64,000 nucleotides of DNA from Candidatus Latescibacterota bacterium (GTDB taxonomy: Bacteria > Latescibacterota > UBA2968 > UBA8231), in assembly GCA_022825835.1 (NCBI GenBank), contig JAJDVZ010000156.1, forward strand, positions 17,825 to 81,824, written 5' to 3'. A program made the translations under genes and the position numbers. How positions within the stretch are numbered: position 1 is the stretch's first letter; every line of letters starts with the position of its first letter. The notes below the pieces were generated by a model. The model searched no databases and was not told where the DNA came from. It saw only the letters and a list, made by a program, of their open reading frames with translations. Positions 40,144 to 62,556 of the stretch are shown one piece after another.

Positions 40144-41760
40144 CTATACGCCCGCAGCCCAGCCATTGCCTCCAGCGCGTACCTTGCCCTCGCTTTTGAG
40201 TACTTCCGCGCCGTGCGCACCGCCGGCCACGGCTTCTCTTACCAGCACCCGGTGGCCCATTTCTCTTAGGGTTTGCACAATCGCCGGGTCGATGCCGCGT
40301 TTTAGTTCGAGGGGTTCTTGGGCTTCGGCGTTGAGTCGGAGGGCTGTGGCCGCTCCCAAGGCGGTGGCGTTGAAGTCGATAATGCGCTGCCCGAGTTGGG
40401 CACCGACGCTGATGATGCGGCGACCGCCGGGTAGGCCGATGGCCACGTCGCGCTGGGGCCGGCGCAAGATCATGGGAACCACGTTGTTGAGCGGACGCTT
40501 GTGCGCGGCCACGGAGTTAGCTCGACCGGGACGGGGGTCCAAACGGCACATGCCGTGGCCCAAAATAATGCCTGTGCCCGGTACTGTGAGACAGGAGCCA
40601 AAGGCCCCGCCTTGGGTTATGGTAATGCCGACGAGATTGCCTTCGGCATCTGCAGCCGATACGTGCAGGGTTTCGGACACGGCTGGACCCGAGGCTTCGT
40701 ACACTTGCTGATCGACCTGCTCGGGGAATTGTTGCAGGGCTTCGACGCGACCGGCGGCGTAGTCCTTACTCAGCAAGCGCTCGACTGGTACATCGACGAA
40801 ATCGGGATCGCCGACGTAGCGCAGGCGGTCGCGCCAAGCCTGTTTGACGACTTCGGCTAGCTGGTGCCAGTACAGGGCTTGGTCGTCGGGTACTATGGGC
40901 AGGCATTCCAACATGTGGAGAATCTGGAGGGCAGAGAGGCAGCCGTTGGGCAAAATCGGCCCGTACACTGGCACGTCGCGGTAGGTGATTTGGTACGGCT
41001 CGGTCAGGCGCGGCGCAAAAGCAGCCATATCCTCGCGGGTGAGAGCACCGCCGCTGGCTTGGACATAATCGCCGATGGTGCGGCCCAATTCGCCGTCGTA
41101 AAAGTCGCGCCAGCCGGCTTGAGCCAAACGCGCCAGGGTGCGCTCCATGTCGGGGCGATGCCAAATGTCGTCGGGGCTAGGCAACTCGCCTTGCGGAGCG
41201 AGGTGGCTGAAAGTTGCGGGGAAGCGGCGCAGAATGGCTTCTTGGCTGCGGATGGTACCGGCTAGGGCTGGGCCGTAGGGAAAGCCGTCGGCGAGCAGCC
41301 CTTGGGCCGGGGCGACAATCGCGTCCCAAGGCAACTTTCCCCAGCGCTCGTGCAAGAAGCCCATGCCAGCCATTTGGCCGGGGACGGCTACGGACTGGGG
41401 GCCGTACACGTTGGCATCGTCGCGGACGCTACAGGCGTATTCCTTTTCGTTGGTGCACATGTTGTCGCGGCGGGCTGGCAGAATATCGTACATGTGCTCG
41501 TGGGCAGCGGCTGGAGCCACGGCATTGGCGTCGAGCGACCAGACGCGGCCAGTGGAACCTTCTAAGACGACCGCCGCCGACATGTAGCCGCCGATGCCAT
41601 TGGATTGGGGGGCCAACATGCAGCAGGCCAAACTGGTGGCCGCGGCCGCATCCATGGCGTTGCCGCCTTGGGCCAATATCTGTGCGCCAATGCGCGCCGC
41701 AGCCGGCTGCTGGGCGGATACAGCGCCGCGGTCGGCTAGTACTTGGTGTCCTTCGGTCAT
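40144..41760 (-). CDS. Gamma-glutamyltransferase family protein (no signal peptide)
   Basis: GAQILAQGGNAMDAAAATSLACCMLAPQSNGIGG, autoprocessing-site-like SETLHVSAADAEGNLVGITITQGGAFGS, and LNNVVPM. Confidence 0.85.
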   Translation of the reverse strand: MTEGHQVLADRGAVSAQQPAAARIGAQILAQGGNAMDAAAATSLACCMLAPQSNGIGGYMSAAVVLEGSTGRVWSLDANAVAPAAAHEHMYDILPARRDNMCTNEKEYACSVRDDANVYGPQSVAVPGQMAGMGFLHERWGKLPWDAIVAPAQGLLADGFPYGPALAGTIRSQEAILRRFPATFSHLAPQGELPSPDDIWHRPDMERTLARLAQAGWRDFYDGELGRTIGDYVQASGGALTREDMAAFAPRLTEPYQITYRDVPVYGPILPNGCLSALQILHMLECLPIVPDDQALYWHQLAEVVKQAWRDRLRYVGDPDFVDVPVERLLSKDYAAGRVEALQQFPEQVDQQVYEASGPAVSETLHVSAADAEGNLVGITITQGGAFGSCLTVPGTGIILGHGMCRLDPRPGRANSVAAHKRPLNNVVPMILRRPQRDVAIGLPGGRRIISVGAQLGQRIIDFNATALGAATALRLNAEAQEPLELKRGIDPAIVQTLREMGHRVLVREAVAGGAHGAEVLKSEGKVRAGGNGWAAGV

Positions 41761-41828
41761 GTTCTCCTCACAATGGGAAATTTCAACGCAACAATAGCTT
41801 TACTCGCCACGAATACAGGAATGTTCAT
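41757..41828 (-). CDS. Possible 23-codon upstream ORF coupled to the GGT start (MNIPVFVASKAIVALKFPIVRRT)
   Basis: The ATG is preceded by GAGGAG. Its TGA overlaps the GGT ATG (ATGA). It lies between two copies of a 29-nt SD-containing direct repeat. Confidence 0.2.
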   Translation of the reverse strand: MNIPVFVASKAIVALKFPIVRRT

Positions 41829-41874
41829 ATATCTAACTTCTCCTCATAACGGGGAATTTTAGCGCACCACTACG

Positions 41875-42903
41875 CTAGCCAAAACGCACGCCCGTTGGGA
41901 TAATTCCCACGTCTTCGCCGCGCCGCATGGCCTCAGCCGCGTCGAGGATGCTCGCCAAGTCGTGCTTGGGTTCAAACCCCAACTTTTGCTTGATGTTGGT
42001 CAAATCCAGTTCAAAGTAATTCCAATCCGGCCGCCGCGCATCGGCGTACCCCAATCCGAAGCGTTCGGCGAGATAGGGCACGGTCTCGCTCCAATCGAAC
42101 AGCGCGGCCCCGCCCAGATTGAACACCTCGCCCACGGCCTCGTCCCGCTCCAGCGCCAACACCAGCCCTTGGACGATGTCGCGCACGTCGGCATACACCT
42201 GCCGAAAGGGCCGCCCGTCTGGATTGCGCGATAGCAGGAACTGCTCCTCGCCCGTCCACAGCGCCTTGATCTCCTCGGCTCCCTCTCGGTCCTTGAACTG
42301 CTCGTAAACTGGCCCGAACAAAAACAGGTGCGGCAAGCCGTTTTCGTCGAGGAATTCCCCCGGCTCGATTATCGTGGCAAAGCGTGTGGTCACCGACGGT
42401 AGCCCGAACTGGAGGTTGTAGCTCATCACCAGCTCCTCGCCAATCCACTTGGTCAGGAAGTAGGGCATCGTCTGGTAGCGGGCGACTTGGTCTTCGCGGA
42501 TTGGCTCTTCAAAGCAGCGGCCGTTGTAGGGGTTCTCCCAGTAGATCGCCTCGGTGGAGGCATAGACCAAGCGGTGTAGATTGGGCGTCAGCTCGCGGAT
42601 GGACTCCAGCACGTTGATGGTGCCCATGCCGTTGATTTCGAGGTATTCGCGGTTGTCGAAGGGGCCGCCAAAGGCCGCGGCAATGTGGTACACCGCATCG
42701 ACTCCCGCGACGGCGCGGCGCACGTCGGCGAGATTGCGCAAGTCGCCTTCGATGGTCTCGACGCGGTCAAAGTCGTCGAGTTTGTGGGCACGGCTTTGGT
42801 CGCCGGGATAGACAAACGAGCGGATGTCGTGCCCTTTGTCGAGCAAAGCGCTGGCTAAGTTGGCTCCGACGCGGCCGGTGCCGCCAGTGATTAGGATTTT
42901 CAC
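41875..42903 (-). CDS. NAD-dependent epimerase/dehydratase (extended SDR)
   Basis: MKILITGGTGRVGANLA Rossmann motif and a YxxxK context (YFLTK). Confidence 0.85.
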   Translation of the reverse strand: MKILITGGTGRVGANLASALLDKGHDIRSFVYPGDQSRAHKLDDFDRVETIEGDLRNLADVRRAVAGVDAVYHIAAAFGGPFDNREYLEINGMGTINVLESIRELTPNLHRLVYASTEAIYWENPYNGRCFEEPIREDQVARYQTMPYFLTKWIGEELVMSYNLQFGLPSVTTRFATIIEPGEFLDENGLPHLFLFGPVYEQFKDREGAEEIKALWTGEEQFLLSRNPDGRPFRQVYADVRDIVQGLVLALERDEAVGEVFNLGGAALFDWSETVPYLAERFGLGYADARRPDWNYFELDLTNIKQKLGFEPKHDLASILDAAEAMRRGEDVGIIPTGVRFG

Positions 42904-42939
42904 GTTGCACCTCTCAGTGGTTAGGGACTACATAAGATA

Positions 42940-43100
42940 ATCCGCAGATGGACGCAGCCCCGGATTGTAGGGGCAACCCTCGTGGTTGCCCAGGTCCTAA
43001 AGCAAGGGTGCCCACAAGGGATGCCTCAATTAGTCTATGGCGTCCCCCACGCTACTGACATACTAGGTCCTAAAACAAGGGCGCCCACAAGGGACGCCCC
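42940..43100. repeat. Cluster of short intergenic repeats (CGCAGAT motif plus three REP-like hairpins and a 34-nt direct repeat)
   Basis: ATCCGCAGATGGACGCAG at 42940-42957. GGGGCAACCCTCGTGGTTGCCC at 42970-42991. AGGTCCTAAARCAAGGGYGCCCACAAGGGAYGCC at 42992-43025 and 43065-43098. Confidence 0.65.
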
Positions 43101-44584
43101 TACATGGGCAGGGCGCTGGCCAAAAGTTTTTCCGGCGTGGCCTCGGCCCTTTCGTACTCGGCGGCGATCCGCCCCTCGCGCATCACGTACACTCGGTCGC
43201 ACAGCCCTAGAATTTCGGGCATTTCCGAGGAGAGGACCACGATTGCCAGCCCTTGGCGCGCCAGCCCGTCTAGCAATTGGTAAATCTCGGCTTTGGCACC
43301 GACGTCTATTCCTCGGGTCGGCTCGTCGACGAGCAGCACTCGCAAGTTTTCCTTGAGCAGCCAGCGGGCCAGCAGTGCCTTTTGCTGATTGCCGCCGCTG
43401 AGCCGCGCGATGGTCTGCTCTTGGTCGGGGGGACGCAGGCGCAGGCGTGCGACGAGTGCGCCGACTTGCTGCCGCTCCATGCCTACCTGCACGTGGCCGG
43501 CGCGGCAGAATTGCTCTAAGGCCGCGACGCTCGCGTTTGCGCGCACGCTTTGCTGTGCGAAGAGGCCGTCGGCCCGGCGATCTTCCGGTACTAGGCCCAA
43601 CCCGAGGGTGCGCGCTTGCGGCGGTGCATTTGCCGGTACGGCGATTCCGTCGATGGTGATAGTTCCAGCGCGGCGGCGATCTGCGCCCATCACGGCTCGC
43701 GCTAGTTCCGTCCGTCCCGCGCCCATCAGCCCGGAAAACCCGACGATTTCCCCGGCGCACACCCGGAAGGAAATATCCTGCACTCGGTCCGTGGTCAACC
43801 CTTCCACTTCTAGCGCGCACGGCCCTGGCGTGCGATCGGCCGCGGGAAAACCTTGCCCCAACTCCCGCCCGACCATCAGGGCGATGAGCTGCTCCTCGTC
43901 GAGGTCGGTAGCCTGTTCGCAGGCGACGCGCTCTCCGTCGCGCAAGACCGTCACCCGGTCGGCCAGCGCCATGACCTCTGAAAGCTTGTGCGATACATAG
44001 ACTACGCCGACGCCTCGCGCCTTGAGCCGGGCAATGAGCGCAAAGAGCTTGTCGATCTCGCGCGTACTCAGGGCCGAGGTTGGCTCGTCCATGATGATTA
44101 TCTGGGCGTCGCACGCCAGCGCTCGCGCGATCTCGACCAATTGCTGCGAGGCCACGCCAAGGTGGCCGACCTTGGTCTGCGGATCAACTGCTAGCCCGAC
44201 CTCGGACAATAGCGTTGCTGAAGCGTCATAGAGCGCGTTCCACTGGACGCGGCCGCCGCGTCCGTGCGGCAGGCGACCGAAGAACAAATTCTCAGCCGCC
44301 GATAGCGAAGGGACTAGTTCTAACTCTTGGTAAACGACCGTAAGGCCGTGGTCTATGGCTTGGCGCGGATGGCGAATATCTACGGGACGGCCCGCAATCT
44401 GGTAGCGGCCTTGGTCGCGGTGGTACACGCCAGCCGCAATTTTGATCAAGGTGCTCTTGCCCGCGCCGTTTTCGCCGACTAGCGCGTGGACTTCTCCCGG
44501 TTGCACTTCAAAGTCAACGCCCTTGAGTGCATAGACGCCGGGGAAGCGCTTGTGGATATCCTCTAGGGACAGTAGCGGCGTCAT
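43100..44584 (-). CDS. Sugar ABC transporter ATP-binding protein (two fused ABC domains, RbsA/MglA type)
   Basis: Walker A GENGAGKST, a second degenerate P-loop GLMGAGRT, signature LSGGNQQK, and Walker B motifs IIIMDEPT and LLVDEPT. Confidence 0.9.
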   Translation of the reverse strand: MTPLLSLEDIHKRFPGVYALKGVDFEVQPGEVHALVGENGAGKSTLIKIAAGVYHRDQGRYQIAGRPVDIRHPRQAIDHGLTVVYQELELVPSLSAAENLFFGRLPHGRGGRVQWNALYDASATLLSEVGLAVDPQTKVGHLGVASQQLVEIARALACDAQIIIMDEPTSALSTREIDKLFALIARLKARGVGVVYVSHKLSEVMALADRVTVLRDGERVACEQATDLDEEQLIALMVGRELGQGFPAADRTPGPCALEVEGLTTDRVQDISFRVCAGEIVGFSGLMGAGRTELARAVMGADRRRAGTITIDGIAVPANAPPQARTLGLGLVPEDRRADGLFAQQSVRANASVAALEQFCRAGHVQVGMERQQVGALVARLRLRPPDQEQTIARLSGGNQQKALLARWLLKENLRVLLVDEPTRGIDVGAKAEIYQLLDGLARQGLAIVVLSSEMPEILGLCDRVYVMREGRIAAEYERAEATPEKLLASALPM

Positions 44585-45552
44585 GTCGGAGGTGCGAGTA
44601 AACGCCGCAAGAGGCTTTGCTTGCGGCGGGTGTCCAGATACACGGCGAGGATAATTACCGCGCCGCGCGCAATGTCGTGGTAAAAGGACGACACGTTCAG
44701 CAGCACCAAGCCGTTGGAGAGCACCGTCAGAATTAAGATGCCGATAAAGGCACCGCCGAGCGTGCCCACGCCGCCCGTCAGGCTGATGCCGCCCAAGATC
44801 ACCGCGGCGATCACCTGCAACTCAAACCCGAGGCCGGCATTCGGCTGCCCGGAGTTGAGGCGCGAGGCCAAGATGAAAGCGCTCAGCGCCGCCAGTACGC
44901 CACCGAGCACGAAGACCAAGACGCGCGTGCGATCTACGGCCAAGCCCGCGAGCCGCGCCGCTTGGATATTGCCGCCGATGGCGTAGATATAGCGGCCGAG
45001 GATGGTGTGGTGGAGGACGTAGTAAAACAGCCCCAAGAGGACAAAGGTAGCCAGCACTGGGATCGGGATCGGCCCCAAGTGTCCGGTTCCCACTTCGATG
45101 AAGCCTTCTACTTTGCCTTGGATCGACACCGCTTGGGTGCTGACCATAGCTGCGCCGCGCAAAATGGCCATCATGCCCAAAGTCGCGATCAGGGAGTTGA
45201 TGCCGGCCTTGGTGACCAACAAGCCGTTGCACAGCCCGACGAGCGCTCCGGCGGCGAGTGCGGCGATGAGTGCCAGCGTTACGCTTTCAAACTGATTGAG
45301 CACGGCCACGGCGATGATCCCGGCCACCGCTTGGGTCGAGCCGACGCTTAGGTCGATCTCGCCGAGCAGGATGATCATCACCATGCCGATTCCGGCGATG
45401 GCTACCAGCGAGGCGTCGCGCAGCACGTTCTTGATATTGACGGCGGTAAAGAAGACCGGCGTCAGCAGGGAAATCCCCACGCAGAGCAAGACTAGCGCCA
45501 ACAACAGCCCGGCCTGCTCGCTGTGGAGCATCCGCGACAGTAAGCGACTCAT
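44581..45552 (-). CDS. Sugar ABC transporter permease (RbsC/BPD_transp_2 type)
   Basis: About 9 TM helices, with GEIDLSVGS and GGISLTGGVGT motifs. 4-nt overlaps with both neighbours. Confidence 0.9.
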   Translation of the reverse strand: MSRLLSRMLHSEQAGLLLALVLLCVGISLLTPVFFTAVNIKNVLRDASLVAIAGIGMVMIILLGEIDLSVGSTQAVAGIIAVAVLNQFESVTLALIAALAAGALVGLCNGLLVTKAGINSLIATLGMMAILRGAAMVSTQAVSIQGKVEGFIEVGTGHLGPIPIPVLATFVLLGLFYYVLHHTILGRYIYAIGGNIQAARLAGLAVDRTRVLVFVLGGVLAALSAFILASRLNSGQPNAGLGFELQVIAAVILGGISLTGGVGTLGGAFIGILILTVLSNGLVLLNVSSFYHDIARGAVIILAVYLDTRRKQSLLRRLLAPPT

Positions 45553-46535
45553 TGCGGCATCAAGGCCCGCACCGCATCCACCTTGAGCGCGAAGGGCGGC
45601 TCGGTGCTCGTGTCGTAGAAGCGGCTGAGATTGTCGCGGGTGACGACGATGGTCGGCGTCTCGTAGTGGGGGGGTAGCTGTTCGCCGCGCGCTAGTTGCA
45701 CCGCCGCATCGATGAGCGCACCACCGACGAAATTGGGAAACATCGCCAGCGCCGCCGCGTAAGGCGTGTCGCCGGTGAGGGCCGTCTGTCCCACGGTGCC
45801 CTCGAAGCCGAAGCCGATTGCCGTCAGCGCTGCTTCGTCCAATCCGGCCGCCTTGTAGGCCGCCATGCCGCCGGTCATCGAATCGTCGTTGATACCGTAG
45901 ATCACGTTGATCTGCGGGTTGGCCGTCAGCGCGTCTTGCGCCACCTTGAACGCCTTTTCCTTGAGGCCCTGCCCATCGACTTCTTGGACGATCTCATGGG
46001 TCAGACCCGAAGCGGCGAGCGCGTCTTTGAAGCCATCGACCCGTTGCCGACAGTCCTCAAAGTTGGGGAAGCCGACGATGAGGATCTTGGGATCGAGACC
46101 CTTCTCCGCCGCGTAGCTGGCAAACCACTCGCCGGCCTTGACCCCACCCGCGTAGTTGTCGATTCCCACGTAGCTGACGGCCTCGGACACGGGGTTGGAC
46201 TCGGTAATCACGTGTACTCCCGCCGCTTTGGCCTGCCGTACTATCGGCCCCATTGCCTTGGCATCCACCGGCGATAGGACCAGCACCTCGACCCCTTGAG
46301 CGAGCAAGTTTTCGGCTTTGGAGATTTGCGCTGCCACGTCGAGGTTGGCATCGGCGACGATCAGCTCGACATCCAACTCGGCCGCCCGCGCTGTCGCCGA
46401 TTTGCTGATGTTTTGATACCACTCGTGCGACATGAAGTTGATGACGTAGCCGATCTTGAGTTTGTCGGGCGCGTCGTCCGGCTGTCCGCAGGCGACCAAT
46501 AGGGCGCACAGCAGCCATGTTTTAGTCTTACTCAT
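45549..46535 (-). CDS. Sugar ABC transporter periplasmic binding lipoprotein (RbsB/Peripla_BP_4 type)
   Basis: Lipobox LLVACG, followed by a type I periplasmic-binding fold pattern (KIGYVINF...VLSPVD...VITESN...IYGINDD). Confidence 0.85.
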   Translation of the reverse strand: MSKTKTWLLCALLVACGQPDDAPDKLKIGYVINFMSHEWYQNISKSATARAAELDVELIVADANLDVAAQISKAENLLAQGVEVLVLSPVDAKAMGPIVRQAKAAGVHVITESNPVSEAVSYVGIDNYAGGVKAGEWFASYAAEKGLDPKILIVGFPNFEDCRQRVDGFKDALAASGLTHEIVQEVDGQGLKEKAFKVAQDALTANPQINVIYGINDDSMTGGMAAYKAAGLDEAALTAIGFGFEGTVGQTALTGDTPYAAALAMFPNFVGGALIDAAVQLARGEQLPPHYETPTIVVTRDNLSRFYDTSTEPPFALKVDAVRALMPQ

Positions 46536-53143: not shown

Positions 53144-53265
53144 TATTTTCGCGCCGATTTATAGTAGCCAAAGCGCCAGTGGCCCACAACAAGGGCCGCG
53201 CCCGCTGGACACGTCTGGCCGTATTCCTTACTAATGAGAGCCAACCTTCACCCCCCAATAGGCTT

Positions 53266-54012
53266 ATGCAAAATATTCTCATCACAGGTGCTACGGGTCT
53301 GATCGGCACGGCCGCGGTCGCCAGCCTCCGCACCCGCTATAACTTGCGCGCCCTCAACCGCCGCCCGCTCCCAAACATCGACTGCCACCAAGCCGATATC
53401 GCCGATCTCGATGCCATCCGGCCGGCCTTTGCCGGGATCGACGCGGTCGTCCATCTCGCCGCCCATATTGAAAACGATATAGCGGCGATCTTCCGCGCCA
53501 ACTTGCAGGGGACGGGGAATGTTTTTGCCGCAGCTCACGAGGCCGGGGTGCGGCGCGTCCTCTTCGCCAGCAGCGGGTCGGTCATGGGCGGCTATGCCGC
53601 GCTCTCGCCATACAAGGAGCTGTTGGCCGGTGAGTACGACCAAGTGCCGGCTGAGTGGCCGATGCTGACTGCGCAATCGCCCCTGCGGCCAACGGGACTA
53701 TACGCAGCTAGCAAGGTCTGGGGCGAAGAGCTGGGCCGCGAGTACGCTTCGGCCCACGGCATGTCCGTCTTCTGCTTGCGCTTTGGCCGCGTCAATCCGG
53801 AAAACCGCCCGACCCATTCCCGCGAGTTCTGCGTCTGGTGCAGCCAGCGCGACGCCGTGCAGATGATCGAAAAGAGCCTTGCCGCTCCCTTTGACTTGCC
53901 CTTCGACACCTTCTTCGTCAACTCGGACAACAAATGGGGCTACCGCGACTTAGAACATGCTCGCCAGACGGTGGGCTTTGTGCCCGCAGACCAAGCCGAA
54001 GACTACCGCTGA
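53266..54012 (+). CDS. NAD-dependent epimerase/dehydratase family protein
   Basis: Start moved to 53266 (MQNILITGATGLIGTA). YAASK catalytic YxxxK. Confidence 0.8.
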   Translation: MQNILITGATGLIGTAAVASLRTRYNLRALNRRPLPNIDCHQADIADLDAIRPAFAGIDAVVHLAAHIENDIAAIFRANLQGTGNVFAAAHEAGVRRVLFASSGSVMGGYAALSPYKELLAGEYDQVPAEWPMLTAQSPLRPTGLYAASKVWGEELGREYASAHGMSVFCLRFGRVNPENRPTHSREFCVWCSQRDAVQMIEKSLAAPFDLPFDTFFVNSDNKWGYRDLEHARQTVGFVPADQAEDYR

Positions 54013-54023
54013 GGAGAAAATTT

Positions 54024-54845
54024 ATGCTGCCTTTTGCTATATGTGCGATTTTGCTCGCTGCCTCCGCCGTACGCGCGGATATGAACATCAACGCTCCCTT
54101 GTTGGAGACGGCCCCGACCATTGACGGCGACCTTGCCGAGTGGAAGGACCTCGCCCACAACGACGGCATCTGGGACATGCGCCGCATCAGCGAGGCTGGC
54201 TTCTATCGCCTCGATCGCGGTGCGCGCAACCGCCTCACCGACCACGGCGACGAGCCGCATCTCGAAGACGACTTGCGCGCCCGCTACTACATTGCTTGGG
54301 ACGCGCAAAATTTCTACTTCGGGGCCGAGGTCTGGGACAATGTCAATGATCTCGACGACCCCGATCCGGCGGACAAGCGCTGGTATTTCAAGGATGCGAT
54401 TTGTTGGTTTATGGAAGGCCCGCGCGACCGGGCCAACGAGCGCTTCGGCCAAGGCGACAATGCCTTCTGCTTTGTCGCCGATCCGCAGCGCACGCCGCAA
54501 AACGCTTGGTGGCGGCACGGCGCGCCCGGCCAGAGCTACATTGAAGAGCCGATCCCCGAGGCAGCTTGCGACTACGTGGTGCGCATGGATCCTTGGGGCC
54601 GGAGCGCGGCTGATTTTATTTTGGAGGCCCGCGTGGATATGCACGCGACGTTTGCCCACAGCGACCCTCGCTGGCAGCCGCCGCAAGTGGGCGACGAATA
54701 CAGCATGGAAATCGTCCACACCGACCCGGATGGCGGCGCATACGGCGGGCACTTCATGATCTACGGCAATGGCGATGACGACAACACGTGGGGCCGGATG
54801 ATTTTAGTCGGGCCGCGGATGCCGATTGGGCGGCTCGCCGAGTAG
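54024..54845 (+). CDS. Secreted CBM9/DOMON-like putative carbohydrate-binding protein
   Basis: SD GAGGAG, then the ATG at 54024. Signal peptide MLPFAICAILLAASAVRA. APTIDGDLAEWKD...RYYIAWDAQNFYFGAEVWDN is a typical CBM9-like start. Confidence 0.65.
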   Translation: MLPFAICAILLAASAVRADMNINAPLLETAPTIDGDLAEWKDLAHNDGIWDMRRISEAGFYRLDRGARNRLTDHGDEPHLEDDLRARYYIAWDAQNFYFGAEVWDNVNDLDDPDPADKRWYFKDAICWFMEGPRDRANERFGQGDNAFCFVADPQRTPQNAWWRHGAPGQSYIEEPIPEAACDYVVRMDPWGRSAADFILEARVDMHATFAHSDPRWQPPQVGDEYSMEIVHTDPDGGAYGGHFMIYGNGDDDNTWGRMILVGPRMPIGRLAE

Positions 54846-55992: not shown

Positions 55993-57600
55993 ATGAGTAG
56001 GGTAGATCAGATCGGCTGGCAGGCCGAGAGCAAAACCGGTGTCATTGCGGCCGGCGGCGCTGGCGCTGTAGCCGCTGGTATTGAAATTCTCGGCGCGGGT
56101 GGCAATGCGGCCGATGCCGCAGCCGGTGCGATTATAGCGCTCAACGTCACTGATCACGGGGCCTGTTCCATCGGCGGGGAAGTGCCGGTGCTCGTCTGGG
56201 ACGGGAAGGCGGTTAAGTCGCTGTCCGGTCAGGGGCGCGCGCCGTTGTCGCCGGAAGCTATTGCTTGGTACATGGAACACGGCATCCCAGACCGCGACAT
56301 CAAGATGGCTCCGGTGCCCTCGGTGGTGGATTTGTGCATTACCCTTTTGCAGCACTACGGCACGCAGAGCTTTGCCGTGATTGTCGCGCCGACCTTGGCC
56401 CTGCTCGACGAAGGCGAGGAGGCGTGGCATACCGACTTGGCGCGGACGCTGCGGCGCATGGTGGAGGAGGAGCACCGCGCTACTGGCAATCGCCAAGAGA
56501 AGTTGCAAGCGGCTTGCGATCACTTCTATGGCCGCCGCGCCGAACACGGCGATATAGCTGAGGACTTAGAGGAATTTTACATAGAGCACGGCGGGTTCTT
56601 GCGCCGCTCGGACTTGGCCGCTCATAGGACTTTGATCGAAGAGCCGGTGGCAGTCGATTACCAGGGCTACCAAGTGTACAAGTGCGGCCCCTGGACCCAA
56701 GGCCCCTATCTGTGCCAAGCCCTGCGCCTGCTCGAAGGGTTTGATCTCAAAAGTATGGGGCATTGCTCGGCCGACTACGTCCACGCGGTCGTCGAAGCGA
56801 TGAAGCTGGCCATGGCCGACCGCGACGCGCACTACGGCGATCCCCTGTTCGTGGACGTGCCTATGGACGCCCTGCTGTCCGACGAATATACCCAGCTACG
56901 GCAGCCCCTGATCGACATGGAGCAAGCCGCGCTGGACGCTCGTCCTGGAGACCCGCTCGGCATGAGGGCACTACAAGAAGGAGGCGCGTTCCAGCCCGGA
57001 GTCGGCGGCACCACCACGTGCGTAGTGGCCGATCGCTGGGGCATGGTCGTATCGGCCACGCCGAGCGCGAATGTCTATCACGCTGGCGGCACCGGCAGCA
57101 CGGGCGTCTCGTATGGCAACCGCCTGCGCAGTCTCAATACGACTCCTGGGCATCCCAACTGCATCGCGCCGGGCAAGCGTCCGCGCATCACCCTGACCCC
57201 CACGCTGGTGCTCAAAGACGGCGCGCCCGTGTTGGCCATCAGCGTGGCTGGCGGCGACTTGCAAGATCAGGCGGCCTTGAACCTCTTGCTCGACTTTGTG
57301 GAGTTTGGAATGCAGCCGGCCGACGCAGTTGTTGCACCGCGCTTTGCCACGGACCACCACGAGGACTCGTTTGACCCCAATCCGGTGCGCGAGCAGACGT
57401 TTATCGAGGCCGGCTCGCTGGCCATCAGCTCGGCTGTCGATGCAGAGGTCCGCGACGAACTGGCGCGGCGCGGCCACCAAGTCGAGGCCCGCAACGGTCC
57501 CATCGCCACCCCAGTCATGCTGTGGGCCGACGCGGGCACGTACTATGCGGCCGGCGATCCGGCTGCGGGTCGCCACGCCGCTGGGCTAGCTGGAGACTAG
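55993..57600 (+). CDS. Gamma-glutamyltransferase family protein (second copy, no signal peptide)
   Basis: GIEILGAGGNAADAAAGAIIALNVTD and nucleophile context GGTTTCVVADRWGMVVSATPS. SD AAGGAG. Confidence 0.85.
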   Translation: MSRVDQIGWQAESKTGVIAAGGAGAVAAGIEILGAGGNAADAAAGAIIALNVTDHGACSIGGEVPVLVWDGKAVKSLSGQGRAPLSPEAIAWYMEHGIPDRDIKMAPVPSVVDLCITLLQHYGTQSFAVIVAPTLALLDEGEEAWHTDLARTLRRMVEEEHRATGNRQEKLQAACDHFYGRRAEHGDIAEDLEEFYIEHGGFLRRSDLAAHRTLIEEPVAVDYQGYQVYKCGPWTQGPYLCQALRLLEGFDLKSMGHCSADYVHAVVEAMKLAMADRDAHYGDPLFVDVPMDALLSDEYTQLRQPLIDMEQAALDARPGDPLGMRALQEGGAFQPGVGGTTTCVVADRWGMVVSATPSANVYHAGGTGSTGVSYGNRLRSLNTTPGHPNCIAPGKRPRITLTPTLVLKDGAPVLAISVAGGDLQDQAALNLLLDFVEFGMQPADAVVAPRFATDHHEDSFDPNPVREQTFIEAGSLAISSAVDAEVRDELARRGHQVEARNGPIATPVMLWADAGTYYAAGDPAAGRHAAGLAGD

Positions 57601-57684
57601 CGCAGCGGAATTGCGAGTGCGGGGCATTGGAACCATATTGTCCGCGTTTAATCCCGATAAAATCGCCTCTGAAGCTGGCTTTTA

Positions 57685-59682
57685 ATGACGTCGCCGACTG
57701 CGACCCCTACATATCGAGAAGAGCATACTCGCCAAGGCCCGGCTAGCGGCCTCACGCTCCGCTCCTTGGTGCTCGGCGTCATCCAAGTCCTCGTGGTGTG
57801 CTTGGGCGCGCCCTACGCTATCTGGGTCTTGGGGTCGTCCGAAATCACGTGGTCGTTCTTTCCGATTGCCGTCGGCTTCTCGTTCTGTTGCCTCATCCTG
57901 CTCAACATCCTGCTCAAGACGATCAACCCCGGCTGGGCCTTGCGACCGGCCGAGATGATCACGGTAGTAGTAATGGGCTTGGTGACGACCGGCATCCCCA
58001 TCTTTATGATGGGCTACGTGCTGTCGATCCCCACCACGCCCTATTACTTTGCCTCGGCTGAAAATCAGTGGGGTACCTACGTGTTGCCCTACCTGCCGAC
58101 GTGGCTGTTGCCGAGCAACGACGGCTTGGCCATGACTTGGTTCTTTGAGGGGCTGCCCCTTGGTGAGCCGATGCCTTGGGGCACGCTGCTCGATGCGTGG
58201 GCCATGCCGCTGTTTTGGTGGCTGAGCTTTATCTGGACCTTGTACGCGGTTTGTTTTTGCCTCGTCGTCATCTTGCGCAAGCAGTGGGTCGAGCGCGAGC
58301 GGTTGGCCTATCCGCTGATGGAGGTGCCGCAAGCTCTGGTGGCGGATGCCGATGGTCCGGCGCGCGTGCCGGCCATTTTGCGCAACAAGGTCTTTTGGAT
58401 GGGAGCGGCGATCCCTCTGTGCATCGTATTGTGGAACATCGTCGGCTTTTTCTTTCACTTCTTTCCCAAGATCGAATGGAACCATCCCATCCAAATCGCG
58501 CACGGCTTTCCGACCATTAACATCCGCTTCTACTTTCCGGTCGTTGGCTTCATGTATTTTGCCAACCTCAACGTCACCTTCAGCATCTGGTTTTTCTTTT
58601 TGTTACTGTTGGTCGAAGAGGGTTTGTTTAACCGCTTTGGCGTTGGCGTGACTGAGGCGGACAACTTCGTGTGGGGCTTGCCTTCGACGTCGTGGCAGTG
58701 TTGGGGAGCTTTTGTGGTGCTGGTGCTGTGGGGCTTGTGGATGGCGCGGGATCATCTAAAGGATGTGTTCCGCAAGGCGTGGAATCCCGCGCATCCGGTT
58801 GACGACAGCCGCGAGCTGATGTCCTATCGCAGCGCAGTCGTCGGTCTGCTGGTCGGGATCGTCTATATGCTGGCGTGGCTCAACAAGGCCGGCATGGAAA
58901 TGTCGGTGGCGGCGTTTTTCTTGGGCGGCGTGCTGATTGCCTACTTGGGCATTACCCGCTTGGTGGTGCAGGCTGGCGTCTTTTACCTGACGACGCCCGT
59001 GGTCAGCCAAGCCATGACCATGATGACTTTTGGTACGAGTGCGATTTCGCCGACGGGCTTGGCGGCCTTGGGGATGAGCTATGGGTTCTTCAGCGATGTG
59101 CAGTCGATTTTTATGCCGTCGGCTGCCCATGCCACCCGGCTGCACGACGCCATGCGCATGAGCCGCCGCGGCCTGTGCTTGGCTATTGCGCTGGCCCTGT
59201 TGATCGGCTTTATCGCCGCCATTGTGTACGTTATTGTCATGGCCTACGAGCAGGGGGCTTCCAACTTCAATTCTTGGTTTTTCCGCGTCTCCTCGGGCGC
59301 GGGAGTGCGCTCCTTTGAAGACGCAATGAGCAAAATAAAAACCCCGGCCGATTTCCACGCGCAAAAGTTAGGCTTCTTTGGTATCGGTGCGGCAGCTATG
59401 ACGGTTTTGACGTTTATGCAGTATCGCTTTCCGTGGTGGCCTCTGCACCCGGTAGGTTTGGCGATCTCCGCGATCTGGATGGTGCGCAACCAAGCCCCGG
59501 CGATTTTCGTGTCTTGGGCGGCCAAGAGCCTGATCATGCGCTTTGGCGGCATCGAGCTATACCGCAAGGCCGCACCCTTCTTCATCGGCCTGATTCTCGG
59601 GCACTTTTTTGGGGTGGGGATCTCGTTTATCGTCGATATGATTTTCTTCCCCGGCAACGGCCACCCCATCCTCCACGGCTGA
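57685..59682 (+). CDS. Polytopic membrane protein of unknown function (665 aa, about 14-16 TM helices), paralog 1
   Basis: Long hydrophobic helices throughout. Conserved blocks include PTTPYYFASAENQWGTYVLPYLP, ERERLAYPLMEVPQAL, YFANLNVTFSIWFFF and FFPGNGHPILHG. I recognise no named transporter signature. Confidence 0.8.
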   Translation: MTSPTATPTYREEHTRQGPASGLTLRSLVLGVIQVLVVCLGAPYAIWVLGSSEITWSFFPIAVGFSFCCLILLNILLKTINPGWALRPAEMITVVVMGLVTTGIPIFMMGYVLSIPTTPYYFASAENQWGTYVLPYLPTWLLPSNDGLAMTWFFEGLPLGEPMPWGTLLDAWAMPLFWWLSFIWTLYAVCFCLVVILRKQWVERERLAYPLMEVPQALVADADGPARVPAILRNKVFWMGAAIPLCIVLWNIVGFFFHFFPKIEWNHPIQIAHGFPTINIRFYFPVVGFMYFANLNVTFSIWFFFLLLLVEEGLFNRFGVGVTEADNFVWGLPSTSWQCWGAFVVLVLWGLWMARDHLKDVFRKAWNPAHPVDDSRELMSYRSAVVGLLVGIVYMLAWLNKAGMEMSVAAFFLGGVLIAYLGITRLVVQAGVFYLTTPVVSQAMTMMTFGTSAISPTGLAALGMSYGFFSDVQSIFMPSAAHATRLHDAMRMSRRGLCLAIALALLIGFIAAIVYVIVMAYEQGASNFNSWFFRVSSGAGVRSFEDAMSKIKTPADFHAQKLGFFGIGAAAMTVLTFMQYRFPWWPLHPVGLAISAIWMVRNQAPAIFVSWAAKSLIMRFGGIELYRKAAPFFIGLILGHFFGVGISFIVDMIFFPGNGHPILHG

Positions 59683-59689
59683 GCCCGCG

Positions 59690-61657
59690 TTGTCAATCCA
59701 TCCCGCACAGCAAGAGGGCACAGGCGTCACCGTGCGCTCTTTGCTCGTGGGCTGCGCGGTGGTGGTGTTGATCAGCTTGGGGGCACCGCACTCGATCTGG
59801 ACGTTTGGCTCGTCTGAGATGACGTGGTCGTTCTTTCCGATTGGGGTGGGGTTTCTCTTTGTCTGCCTCATCTTCGCCAACGCCCTGCTGAAGACCTTCA
59901 ATTTTAGCTGGGCACTGCGCCCTGCCGAGCTGATCACCGTCGTCGTCATGGGCTTGGTCTGTACAGGCATTCCGGTTTTTCTAATCGGCTACTTCCTAGC
60001 CATACCGACGACGCCGTATTACTTTGCGTCGGCGGAGAATCAATGGGGCACGTACGTGTTGCCCTACCTACCGACGTGGCTGTTGCCGAGCAACGACGGC
60101 TTGGCCATGACTTGGTTTTTTGAGGGCCTGCCCATCGGCGAACCGACCCCTTGGGGCACCTTGCTAGCCGCTTGGGCCATGCCGCTGTTTTGGTGGCTGA
60201 GCTTTCTATGGACTTTGTACTTGGTCTGCTTCTGCGTGGTGGTCATCCTCCGCAAGCAGTGGATTGAGCGCGAGCGGTTGGCCTATCCGCTGATGGAGGT
60301 GCCGCAAGCCCTCGTCGCCAATGCCGATAGCTCCCGCCGACTGCCAGCGGTCATGTACAGCAAAGTCTTCTGGGCGGGGGCGGCCATTCCGCTTGGCATT
60401 GTCTTGTGGAACATCGTCGGCTTTTTCTTTCACTTCTTTCCCAAGATCGAATGGCAGCATCCCATCCAAATTGCGCACGGCTTTCCGACCATTAACATTC
60501 GCTTCTATTTTCCGGTCATCGGTTTCATGTATTTCGCCAATCTCAATGTCACTTTTAGCATCTGGTTCTTCTTTTTGCTAACGCTGATTGAGGAGGGTTT
60601 GTTCAACCGCTTTGGCCTCGGCGTCACTGAGGCGGATAAATTCGTTTGGGGGCTACCATCGACCTCGTGGCAGTGTTGGGGGGCGTTCGTGGTGTTGGTG
60701 CTGTGGGGATTGTGGATGGCGCGCGACCACCTCAAGGATGTGGTCCGCAAGGCGTGGAATCCGGACTACCCGATTGACGATCGGCGCGAGTTGATGTCCT
60801 ACCGCGCCGCGGTGCTGGGCCTCGTGCTGGGTGTTTGCTACATGCTAACTTGGCTGCACGAGTCTGGCATGGAATGGTCGGTGGCGATGCTCTTTTTGGC
60901 TGGCGTACTCATCGCCTATTTGGGCATTACGCGCTTGGTGGTCCAGACGGGCGTGTTTTATCTGACCACGCCTGTCGTCAGTCAGGCGATGACCATGATG
61001 ACGCTGGGCACTAGCGCCATTTCGCCGACGGGGTTGGCGGCCTTGGGGTTGACCTATTCTTTTTTTGGCGATGTGCAATCCATCTTCATGCCCTCGGCAG
61101 CGCACGCGGCCAAGTTGCAGCACAGTCTGCGCATTGCCCGCCGCGGCTTTGTTTTGGCCATTGCCTTGGCCGTGGTGCTGTCCTTTGCGGTTTCGCTGAC
61201 CAATCTCATAGCTATGGCCTACGAGCAGGGGGCTTCTAACTTCAATTCTTGGATCTTCCGCGTCTCCTCGGGAGCAGGCGTGATGGCCTTTGGCGACGTG
61301 ATGGCCAAGATCAAGGCTCCAGCCGATTTCCACGCGCAAAAGTTAGGCTTCTTCGGCATCGGCGCGGCGGCGATGTCGGTTTTGACGTTTATGCAGTATC
61401 GCTTCCCGTGGTGGCCTCTGCACCCGGTGGGCTTGGCCATTTCCGCGATCTGGATGGTGCGCAACCAAGCACCGGCCATCTTCGTGGCGTGGGCGGCCAA
61501 GAGTTTGATCATGCGCTTTGGCGGCATTGAGCTATACCGCAAGGCTGCGCCGTTCTTCATCGGCCTGATTGCGGGCTACTTTCTCGGCGTTGGTCTCTCT
61601 TTCCTCGTGGATGTGGCGTTCTTCCCCGGCAATGGGCATCCGATCCTGCACGGCTGA
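59690..61657 (+). CDS. Polytopic membrane protein of unknown function (655 aa), tandem paralog 2
   Basis: TTG start 7 nt after the upstream stop. Collinear with paralog 1 and, by eye, roughly four-fifths identical to it. Confidence 0.8.
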   Translation: MSIHPAQQEGTGVTVRSLLVGCAVVVLISLGAPHSIWTFGSSEMTWSFFPIGVGFLFVCLIFANALLKTFNFSWALRPAELITVVVMGLVCTGIPVFLIGYFLAIPTTPYYFASAENQWGTYVLPYLPTWLLPSNDGLAMTWFFEGLPIGEPTPWGTLLAAWAMPLFWWLSFLWTLYLVCFCVVVILRKQWIERERLAYPLMEVPQALVANADSSRRLPAVMYSKVFWAGAAIPLGIVLWNIVGFFFHFFPKIEWQHPIQIAHGFPTINIRFYFPVIGFMYFANLNVTFSIWFFFLLTLIEEGLFNRFGLGVTEADKFVWGLPSTSWQCWGAFVVLVLWGLWMARDHLKDVVRKAWNPDYPIDDRRELMSYRAAVLGLVLGVCYMLTWLHESGMEWSVAMLFLAGVLIAYLGITRLVVQTGVFYLTTPVVSQAMTMMTLGTSAISPTGLAALGLTYSFFGDVQSIFMPSAAHAAKLQHSLRIARRGFVLAIALAVVLSFAVSLTNLIAMAYEQGASNFNSWIFRVSSGAGVMAFGDVMAKIKAPADFHAQKLGFFGIGAAAMSVLTFMQYRFPWWPLHPVGLAISAIWMVRNQAPAIFVAWAAKSLIMRFGGIELYRKAAPFFIGLIAGYFLGVGLSFLVDVAFFPGNGHPILHG

Positions 61658-61698
61658 GAATTTTGGATTTAATGGGTTGATTCTTTAGATTCTACACT

Positions 61699-62073
61699 AT
61701 GACCACAGAGACAACCAAAAAGACCAACCAAACGCTCGAACTCGTCGTAGAGACCCTCGTCCGTGCACACCCCTTCGAGCGGATCGTTCTATTCGGCTCC
61801 CATGCCACGGGTCATAGCCAATGGGACAGTGATTTGGACTTACTCGTAGTCTGGCAGACGGATTTGTCCCCGTTGGAACGAGCCCTTGAAATGCGCCGTC
61901 TGCTTGAAGGCATCAATTGCCCCTTGGATATTGTCGTGTACACCCCCGCCGAACTGGACTATTGGAAAGAAGCTCCGTCTTCATTTGCGTCCCAGATATT
62001 GGCCGAGGGGATGACTTTATATGAGCGAAACCCCGCAAAAAATTCTAGTGCGGCAGTGGATCAGCCGGGCTGA
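61699..62073 (+). CDS. Nucleotidyltransferase-domain protein (MNT-type antitoxin)
   Basis: LFGSHATGHSQWDSDLDLLVV matches the GSxxxG...DxD minimal NTase motif. Confidence 0.8.
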   Translation: MTTETTKKTNQTLELVVETLVRAHPFERIVLFGSHATGHSQWDSDLDLLVVWQTDLSPLERALEMRRLLEGINCPLDIVVYTPAELDYWKEAPSSFASQILAEGMTLYERNPAKNSSAAVDQPG

Positions 62074-62485
62074 AAATGACCTGCTAAACGTCAGGAATAA
62101 TCTGGCGGCCCAAGAAATTCCTTGGGATACGATCTGTTTCCACAGTCAACAGGCGGCTGAAAAATACCTCAAAGCCATTCTGGTGTTCCATGCCCAGGCG
62201 GTTCCGCGTACCCACGATCTAGAACATCTGCTGGGCATGGTTGTCCAGTGGATTCCCCAAATCCAAGAGCAACAGGAGGCGTTGCGCTGGCTGACGACGT
62301 TTGCGGTTGCCAGCCGTTACCCAGTCGAGACGGTCGAAGGTGTGGATGAGCCGCAAGGTCGGCGTTCACTGGATATTGCCCAAGCCATTCGCCGGGATTG
62401 CCGCGCCTACCTGATGGAGTTGGATCCAACGCTTTTTGACCAATCGACCGCTACTGACCCGCCGCCCCCTTCTTCATCGGACTAA
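62021..62485 (+). CDS. HEPN-domain protein (HEPN toxin of an MNT/HEPN pair)
   Basis: The RTHDLEHL motif fits Rx4-6H in a helical protein of about 150 aa. It overlaps the MNT gene by 53 nt, so the true start is uncertain. The last ~8 codons run into the duplicated membrane-gene remnant. Confidence 0.7.
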   Translation: MSETPQKILVRQWISRAENDLLNVRNNLAAQEIPWDTICFHSQQAAEKYLKAILVFHAQAVPRTHDLEHLLGMVVQWIPQIQEQQEALRWLTTFAVASRYPVETVEGVDEPQGRRSLDIAQAIRRDCRAYLMELDPTLFDQSTATDPPPPSSSD

Positions 62486-62556
62486 TCGTCGGCCTCTCCT
62501 TCCTCGTGGATGTGGCGTTCTTCCCCGGCAACGGGCATCCGATTTTGCACGGCTGA
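62461..62556 (+). pseudogene. Orphan 3'-terminal remnant of a third copy of the 57685/59690 membrane-protein gene
   Basis: Encodes AAPFFIGLIVG-LSFLVDVAFFPGNGHPILHG plus a stop. Compared with 61544-61657 it is over 90% identical at nucleotide level, with one in-frame 18-nt deletion. Confidence 0.75.

Follow-up and report, generated by a model that had tools for sequence, protein, structure and literature searches.

The window analysed here is a stretch of 64,000 nucleotides from a Candidatus Latescibacterota bacterium (contig JAJDVZ010000156.1, positions 17,825 to 81,824 of the forward strand), and our subject is a tandem pair of genes within it that code for large membrane proteins, together with the genes around them. 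Copy a (57685..59682, + strand) codes for 665 amino acids and copy b (59690..61657, + strand), read from a TTG start, for 655; only 7 nt separate the two. In the public gene call copy b begins at the GTG at 59732, which may be its actual start. Directly upstream of copy a, on the same strand and 84 nt away, lies a gene that we call GGT1 (55993..57600, 535 amino acids), which codes for a leaderless Ntn hydrolase of the gamma-glutamyltransferase (GGT) family. A preliminary description of the window had presented the two membrane proteins as collinear paralogs of ~660 amino acids, about four-fifths identical. This was confirmed: they align without gaps across 652 residues at 81% identity and 90% positives, and all six invariant blocks quoted there are found in both copy a and copy b.

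The match of both proteins to the Pfam model PF20581 (DUF6785) spans profile positions 1-498 of 498, with 375.7 bits for copy a and 357.9 bits for copy b against a gathering score of 25. The C-terminal DUF6784 (PF20580) scores 91.1 and 85.9 bits, respectively, against a gathering score of 26.4. By these matches, copies a and b are full-length, high-scoring DUF6785/DUF6784 members with the architecture and length typical of the family. They had previously been described as being of unknown family, possibly an uncharacterised transporter or membrane-enzyme family. Transporter-like and uncharacterised they remain, but the unknown family has given way to the Pfam assignment. To our knowledge, DUF6785/DUF6784 is a family without an assigned function, and its NCBI name is simply "DUF6785 family protein". 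A literature search by the DUF names retrieved no paper naming DUF6785 or DUF6784, and NCBIfam contains no model matching copies a and b.

An AlphaFold2 model of the transporter, built from 35 homologues, proved confident (pLDDT 87.1, pTM 0.88). Compared with the PDB by Foldseek, it gave significant matches solely to barley Yellow Stripe 1 (HvYS1, here YS1): 7wst_A with an E-value of 1.9e-8 and 7wsr with 3.4e-7, both at probability 1.0, with TM scores of 0.61-0.67 (0.61/0.66 for 7wst_A) over ~600 residues and an identity of 11-12%. The next match had a TM score of 0.15. The three-dimensional architecture of HvYS1 was thus found in a predicted, not an experimental, structure. GT-C and ligase-like membrane-enzyme folds were rejected, as were the MFS, APC/LeuT, NhaA, TRAP and ABC transporter folds, since all Foldseek matches to them had TM scores of at most 0.15 and E-values of at least 0.027.

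As part of the overall explanation proposed below, which we consider fairly probable as a whole, the model suggests that DUF6785/DUF6784 represents a prokaryotic lineage that has diverged very far and carries the OPT/Yellow-Stripe transporter fold. The preliminary description had recognised no OPT signature; the predicted fold does match OPT/Yellow-Stripe, and the sequence model PF03169 nevertheless does not. Sequence searches led to no characterised family, and it was Foldseek that led to barley YS1. Because sequence methods do not confirm the link, we term the family OPT-fold and do not file it under PF03169. As for the 14-16 hydrophobic helices counted before, the number is approximate only: DSSP assigns ~20 helical elements to the model, short broken helices included, while a crude hydropathy scan finds ~10-11 strongly hydrophobic segments (proteins belonging to the OPT family possess 16 or 17 transmembrane segments). 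Near-invariant charged residues of the family are E90, R198, E205, R355, H357, E377 and K614.

The family is a large one, with 4,740 representatives in public data after clustering at 50% identity (E <= 1e-3). The genome to which the window belongs (6.3 Mb) carries 47 DUF6785 copies, or ~1% of its roughly 5,200 genes. In a survey of the phylum, 47 of 61 sampled genomes had the family, and as many as 56 first-look candidates were counted in a single genome; none of the 14 control genomes contained a member. Neither the genome of the window nor the genomes sampled from its class have canonical OPT, save one genome of the same family. Several other Latescibacterota families have canonical OPT as a single copy, and its coexistence there with DUF6785 marks the latter as a separate lineage.

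The paralog tree and the neighbour counts reported below are based on the 46 of the 47 own-genome copies that were callable. These copies form old, well-separated lineages (median terminal branch 0.46), and copies a and b are sister tips within a five-member subclade. Tandem arrays of 2-4 DUF6785 genes occur at other loci, and most of the own-genome paralogs are singletons. The window pair is one instance of a large DUF6785 expansion.

Two further observations concern the relation to canonical OPT. Across Latescibacterota families, the distribution of canonical OPT (one copy) and DUF6785 (many copies) is partly complementary, and one family (f9) has neither. Additionally, a 685-residue open reading frame (ORF) in a genome of the same class (L089, G013:C2:2099903-2100691) and similar membrane ORFs of 650-692 residues in class relatives gave weak PF03169 matches of 36 bits in a genome search; hmmscan assigned them no Pfam family and did not reproduce the match of L089. 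These membrane ORFs of ~690 residues may represent yet another divergent OPT-like lineage.

GGT1 scores 286 bits with PF01019, the Pfam model of the family to which MEROPS T03 corresponds, and 226.8 bits with TIGR00066. As the latter lies under the NCBIfam equivalog cut-off of 357.85, which marks genuine glutathione-hydrolysing GGTs, the substrate of the enzyme is uncertain. It keeps its nucleophile threonine intact: T340, in the motif GGT-T-T, falls opposite residue 1 in the small subunits 3a75_B, 2v36_B and 4ott_B. The best PDB relatives include 2nlz, deposited as a cephalosporin acylase. The coding sequence begins at the first start codon after a stop, with no upstream extension, and ~16 polar residues precede the conserved core. 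Thus, to judge from its N-terminus, GGT1 has no signal peptide, unlike the canonical bacterial GGT with its periplasmic location. Both the coordinates and the N-terminus confirm what had been said before of a signal-peptide-less GGT homolog 84 nt upstream.

The 84-nt gap between GGT1 and copy a contains no terminator-like site. We compared 55 loci that are orthologous or closely related, taking a single genome for each species, and found a GGT gene directly upstream of the transporter in 25 of them, on the same strand and at close spacing. All 25 belong to a clade in which copy a is at least 87% identical to that of the window, whereas the gene is lacking from almost all of the remoter relatives grouped with the window pair (58-84% identity). 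The clade appears to be sponge-associated, judging by the names of its metagenome-assembled genomes. Outside it, GGT1 has its closest relatives among proteins that bear the label Caldilineaceae or Chloroflexi, with an identity of 73-79% (P0294, P0312, P0328, P0354, P0374 and P0383). This is far too high for vertical descent between phyla, which argues for horizontal transfer and indicates that GGT1 probably moved between phyla recently, plausibly in a shared habitat. Three Chloroflexota contexts of GGT1-type genes have neither a DUF6785 gene nor a transporter that recurs.

The adjacency of GGT1 and the pair is therefore real but shallow and acquired, and a functional coupling with the transporters is possible. 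The preliminary description had suggested a functional link between the membrane family and gamma-glutamyl compound or peptide metabolism. What holds of this is the adjacency itself, kept in 25 species-level genomes. A deep or family-wide link does not hold: the own genome has three GGT genes, only this one has a DUF6785 neighbour (1 of the 47 DUF6785 copies), and across genomes the co-occurrence is confined to one shallow clade. Family-wide co-occurrence is contradicted by the paralogs, the distant orthologues and the Chloroflexota contexts alike.

The duplication that gave rise to the pair was previously attributed to recent tandem amplification. Our results do not agree with this. Copies a and b differ by a dS of 0.99 and a dN of 0.12 (omega ~0.12), and in the orthologue tree they fall into separate clades, with 29 tips for a (support 0.999) and 20 for b (support 1.0). 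The sister group of clade a (support 0.975) is a single-copy clade in which the transporter follows a gene for a CBM9-fold protein, and clade b branches outside both. By this branching, the duplication is older than the gain of GGT. In six close relatives copy b has been lost and copy a alone is kept. On the whole, the duplication is old, with no recent amplification, and both copies have been kept under purifying selection, as separate orthologue clades, in ~20 species.

Downstream of copy b, the 96-nt orphan copy of the transporter gene 3′ end (62461..62556, + strand) is real: its last 70 nt match the end of copy b at 91% identity, and it carries an 18-nt in-frame deletion. It had been taken for the remnant of a third paralog, which probably never existed. 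Between copy b and the fragment lies a gene for an MNT-type nucleotidyltransferase (61699..62073, + strand; PF18765, E 9.7e-11), the antitoxin-like half of an MNT/HEPN cassette, followed by one for a HEPN-domain protein (62021..62485, + strand; PF05168, E 6.9e-25), whose ORF extends into the fragment. The two adjacent genes overlap by 53 nt and both Pfam models match, as is expected of an MNT/HEPN pair. In the region 61544-62556 of the window, the cassette is bracketed by direct repeats of the transporter gene 3′ end.

Across relatives, such a fragment is clearly present in the nine loci where an MNT/HEPN cassette abuts a transporter gene (L035, L036, L040, L041, L043, L046, L055, L059 and L061). 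It is absent from cassette-free loci, and missing or weak in two loci with a partial or displaced cassette. In relatives, the cassette sits behind copy a or copy b, and the orphan end matches the gene that precedes it; in L041, with the cassette behind copy a, it is the end of copy a that the fragment resembles (96%). Since the orphan end tracks the cassette across relatives, a decayed third paralog is rejected, and the fragment is most plausibly a target end that was duplicated, a scar of cassette insertion. The bracketing hints at an insertion mechanism that regenerates the end of the target gene.

The deeper partners of the window transporters lie further upstream. An SDR of the NAD-dependent epimerase/dehydratase family, up277 (53179..54012, + strand; PF01370, E 2.5e-26), is followed by up303 (54024..54845, + strand; longest ORF from 53934), which codes for a protein of 273 amino acids with a signal-peptide-like N-terminus, MLPFAICAILLAASAVRA. 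The AlphaFold2 model of up303 (pLDDT 76.6) matches CBM9 modules in Foldseek (7nwn, 1i82_A and 7nwo; E 1e-10 to 2e-9, TMt 0.69-0.72), while its score with the Pfam model CBM9_1 (PF06452) is 20.1 bits (E 6.6e-4), under the gathering score of 23.4. The predicted fold makes up303 a candidate ligand-binding partner in the periplasm or at the surface.

In ~20 distant loci, at 50-84% identity, up303 and/or up277 stand directly upstream of the transporter orthologue, with up277 directly before the DUF6785 gene or before up303. The SDR and the CBM9-fold protein are the deeper conserved partners of the window transporter subfamily. The CBM9-fold protein is not, however, a family-wide partner: up303 occurs only once in the own genome and is restricted to this subfamily. 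The stretch between up303 and copy a is variable, and in the window it holds a redoxin-like ORF and a hicBA pair besides GGT1. Downstream on a near-identical contig, as well as in close relatives, there are genes for a Plug-domain outer-membrane receptor and a DUF4249 protein.

Genome-wide, we counted the genes within four genes of the DUF6785 copies. Five out of 7 giant (~1,500 amino acids) FtsX/MacB-like membrane proteins with a PA/M28 ectodomain are found there (p = 1e-5), as are 3 of the 4 PDZ proteins of the genome. FG-GAP/ASPIC proteins (21 of 86, p = 1e-8) and T9SS-CTD surface proteins (31 of 226, p = 7e-6) are also enriched, and so are proteins of ~900 amino acids without a Pfam match; enrichment is moderate for SurA-like peptidyl-prolyl isomerases (PPIases) and two families without a Pfam match. 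Sulfatases, GFO/IDH/MocA, enolase-superfamily and PhyH proteins are frequent nearby through their genome-wide abundance and were rejected as specific partners (p = 0.18-0.72). No glycoside hydrolases were among the enriched neighbours.

A single ORF of 2,090 amino acids in the own genome (locus L101, C58:2634-8906) even fuses M28, MacB_PCD, FtsX, DUF6785 and DUF6784. The same FtsX/MacB-DUF6785-DUF6784 fusion occurs in another organism, with no M28 match listed (protein P0256 was recorded alongside L101). Unfused giants of ~1,500 amino acids adjoin DUF6785 genes at 5 further loci. Additionally, at no fewer than 14 distant loci the giant stands downstream of the window pair's orthologue, in convergent orientation.

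Some other arrangements are worth recording. Proteins of 660-1,070 amino acids that contain a PDZ domain or are unannotated adjoin DUF6785 genes at L102 (C172:4758-7964) and L103 (C32:95583-97565), and the C-terminus of the 1,068-residue protein on C172 weakly matches the final 100 positions of the Pfam model for OPT. At L118, on the contig with P0101, a TPR protein, ExbB, two ExbD and a SurA-like PPIase are followed by four DUF6785 genes and then FG-GAP/ASPIC. This arrangement links the DUF6785 family to TonB-type energised outer-membrane uptake.

Taken together, these results allow us to propose an explanation that we consider fairly probable: an old, maintained pair of OPT-fold importers to which a clade-limited GGT and a cassette scar were added. 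Copies a and b would act in the inner membrane as secondary importers of the elevator type, coupled to a cation that is probably the proton. The ancestral operon of the subfamily would run from the SDR through the secreted CBM9-fold protein to the transporter. In one shallow clade, a horizontally acquired leaderless amidohydrolase of the GGT family would have been inserted directly upstream of copy a; the enzyme may act in the cytoplasm on the compound taken up, and would be no general partner of the family. The 96-nt fragment would be a gene end duplicated when the MNT/HEPN cassette was inserted.

Inner-membrane location, uptake, proton coupling and the elevator mechanism are suggested by the fold alone, by analogy with YS1, a homodimeric, proton-coupled, elevator-type symporter of the OPT family (PMC9691689). 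The characterised OPT members are all cation:solute uptake symporters, whose solutes are oligopeptides, glutathione and glutathione conjugates, or metal chelates (PMC3061005). HvYS1 (7wst, 7wsr) belongs to the YSL branch (TC 2.A.67, PF03169) and is similar in size to copies a and b, for which the same mechanism is proposed here. It carries Fe(III)-phytosiderophore, whereas nothing at the window locus points to metal chelates.

Several points weigh against this explanation. PF03169 (OPT; gathering score 25.8 bits) matched neither copies a and b at E <= 1 nor any of 59 further diverse family members at E <= 0.01. In searches of PDB sequences, phmmer found nothing meaningful and the family profile matched nothing. 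Comparison by hhalign of 60 members with 12 canonical Latescibacterota OPTs was weak (probability 9.8%, E 0.0032), the alignment being collinear across 329 columns. As sequence methods give no OPT connection, the link rests on predicted structure, and we infer the transport direction, the coupling ion and the substrate. The CBM9 fold is also found in haem-binding subunits, which are among the matches of up303 (7b04_C and 2ivf_C). Finally, the strongest genome-wide partners are the giant FtsX/MacB-like proteins and the PDZ proteins, which hint at peptide handling or a larger machine.

In the case of the substrate, a carbohydrate-type solute is our tentative choice, though we hold it somewhat short of probable. 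It has a slight edge over a gamma-glutamyl compound or peptide because the SDR/CBM9-fold/transporter operon is conserved and a Plug receptor and DUF4249 lie downstream; an oligosaccharide-specific OPT subcluster has also been proposed from genome context (PMC3061005). The precedent of OPT, the GGT and the FtsX/M28 giant favour a peptide or gamma-glutamyl substrate, which we find possible but rather doubtful, and the same may be said of some other substrate altogether.

The locus resembles polysaccharide-utilisation-type loci in its secreted CBM9-fold protein upstream and in the Plug receptor and DUF4249 downstream; the DUF6785 copies near T9SS-CTD, FG-GAP/ASPIC and SurA-like PPIase genes add to the likeness. 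It differs from them in that there is no SusC/SusD pair and in that the inner-membrane carrier has the OPT fold and is not an MFS or ABC transporter. On the gamma-glutamyl side, precedents for the window pair and GGT1 are OPT-type carriers tied to gamma-glutamyl metabolism: yeast Hgt1p (Opt1), which imports glutathione (PMC12687453), and CptA of C. jejuni, which is cited as importing the GGT product Cys-Gly (PMC7340319). The analogy has a limit, since the GGT of C. jejuni is extracytoplasmic and acts before transport, whereas the leaderless GGT1 would act after it.

These precedents lend some weight to a different explanation, in which GGT1, a and b form a functional operon: the pair would import glutathione, gamma-glutamyl peptides or related amino-acid conjugates, to be hydrolysed by GGT1 in the cytoplasm. 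GGT1 and copy a share a strand, and the short gap between them lacks a terminator-like site; the adjacency is retained in 25 species-level genomes and T340 is intact; glutathione and peptides are known OPT substrates (PMC3061005, PMC12687453), and Cys-Gly import by CptA has been cited (PMC7340319). The family is also fused to, or adjoins, PA/M28 peptidase-like proteins, and OPT-peptidase fusions are known (PMC3061005). We nevertheless regard such an operon as unlikely. Its adjacency is limited to one shallow clade, where descent alone can explain it, and the deeper orthologues do without GGT. Only 1 of 47 own-genome paralogs stands beside a GGT gene, and the GGT1-type genes of Caldilineaceae have neither DUF6785 nor a recurring transporter. 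Moreover, the stretch that holds GGT1 is variable and also contains hicBA and further inserts, and GGT1 scores under the TIGR00066 cut-off.

The neighbour counts raise the question of whether the transporters are instead subunits of a larger envelope machine, made up of the ATPase-less FtsX/MacB-like PA/M28 giant, PDZ proteins and surface or outer-membrane modules, whose role may be export or surface assembly instead of uptake. The 2,090-residue fusion and its FtsX/MacB counterpart in another organism speak for this, as do the clustering of giants (5/7) and PDZ proteins (3/4) within four genes of DUF6785, the convergent giant in at least 14 distant loci and the enrichment of FG-GAP/ASPIC and T9SS-CTD genes. 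However, no giant or PDZ gene adjoins the pair at the window locus or anywhere in the GGT-bearing clade, and a giant is lacking near most of the 46 copies. Where a giant does stand beside the subfamily it is convergent, hence a separate transcription unit, and in YS1 a complete OPT-like fold suffices for transport (PMC9691689). Such a machine is very unlikely in our view. We give just as little credence to the idea that the pair exists as an obligate a-b heterodimer, not for dosage or different substrates. YS1 is a homodimer (PMC9691689), both copies are kept under purifying selection in ~20 species and tandem arrays of 2-4 recur, but six close relatives keep copy a alone, the sister clade is single-copy and most paralogs are singletons.

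A bolder version of the preferred explanation, that of an old OPT-fold importer pair with later additions, can also be put forward, and we consider it decidedly unlikely. DUF6785/DUF6784 would be a large prokaryotic arm of the OPT/Yellow-Stripe superfamily and, with its many paralogs, the main inner-membrane import system of the nutrient-acquisition loci of Latescibacterota, and copies a and b, which might form a heterodimer, would import an amide-linked conjugate. This conjugate, for instance a gamma-glutamylated or glyco-conjugated solute, would be captured by the CBM9-fold protein together with the TonB-type receptor encoded downstream, and GGT1 would cleave it in the cytoplasm.

Latescibacterota are uncultured, and their uptake of organic matter is largely unknown. 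Placement of the pair in the OPT fold would give it a concrete mechanism, proton-coupled elevator-type symport, and a starting list of candidate substrates. At the locus itself, the conserved set of CBM9-fold protein, SDR and transporter can be told apart from recent add-ons, namely GGT1 and the toxin-antitoxin cassettes. This separation corrects a function that would otherwise be guessed from adjacency.

The window also holds a second GGT-family gene, as had been noted in the preliminary description (40144-41760, - strand); it is 26% identical to GGT1. It adjoins an SDR epimerase gene (41875-42903) and a CUT2-type sugar ABC transporter with an ATPase (43100-44584), a permease (44581-45552) and a binding protein (45549-46535), all within the region 40144-46535 on the - strand. 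A GGT-like gene, an SDR and a sugar-type uptake system are thus found together twice inside 20 kb.

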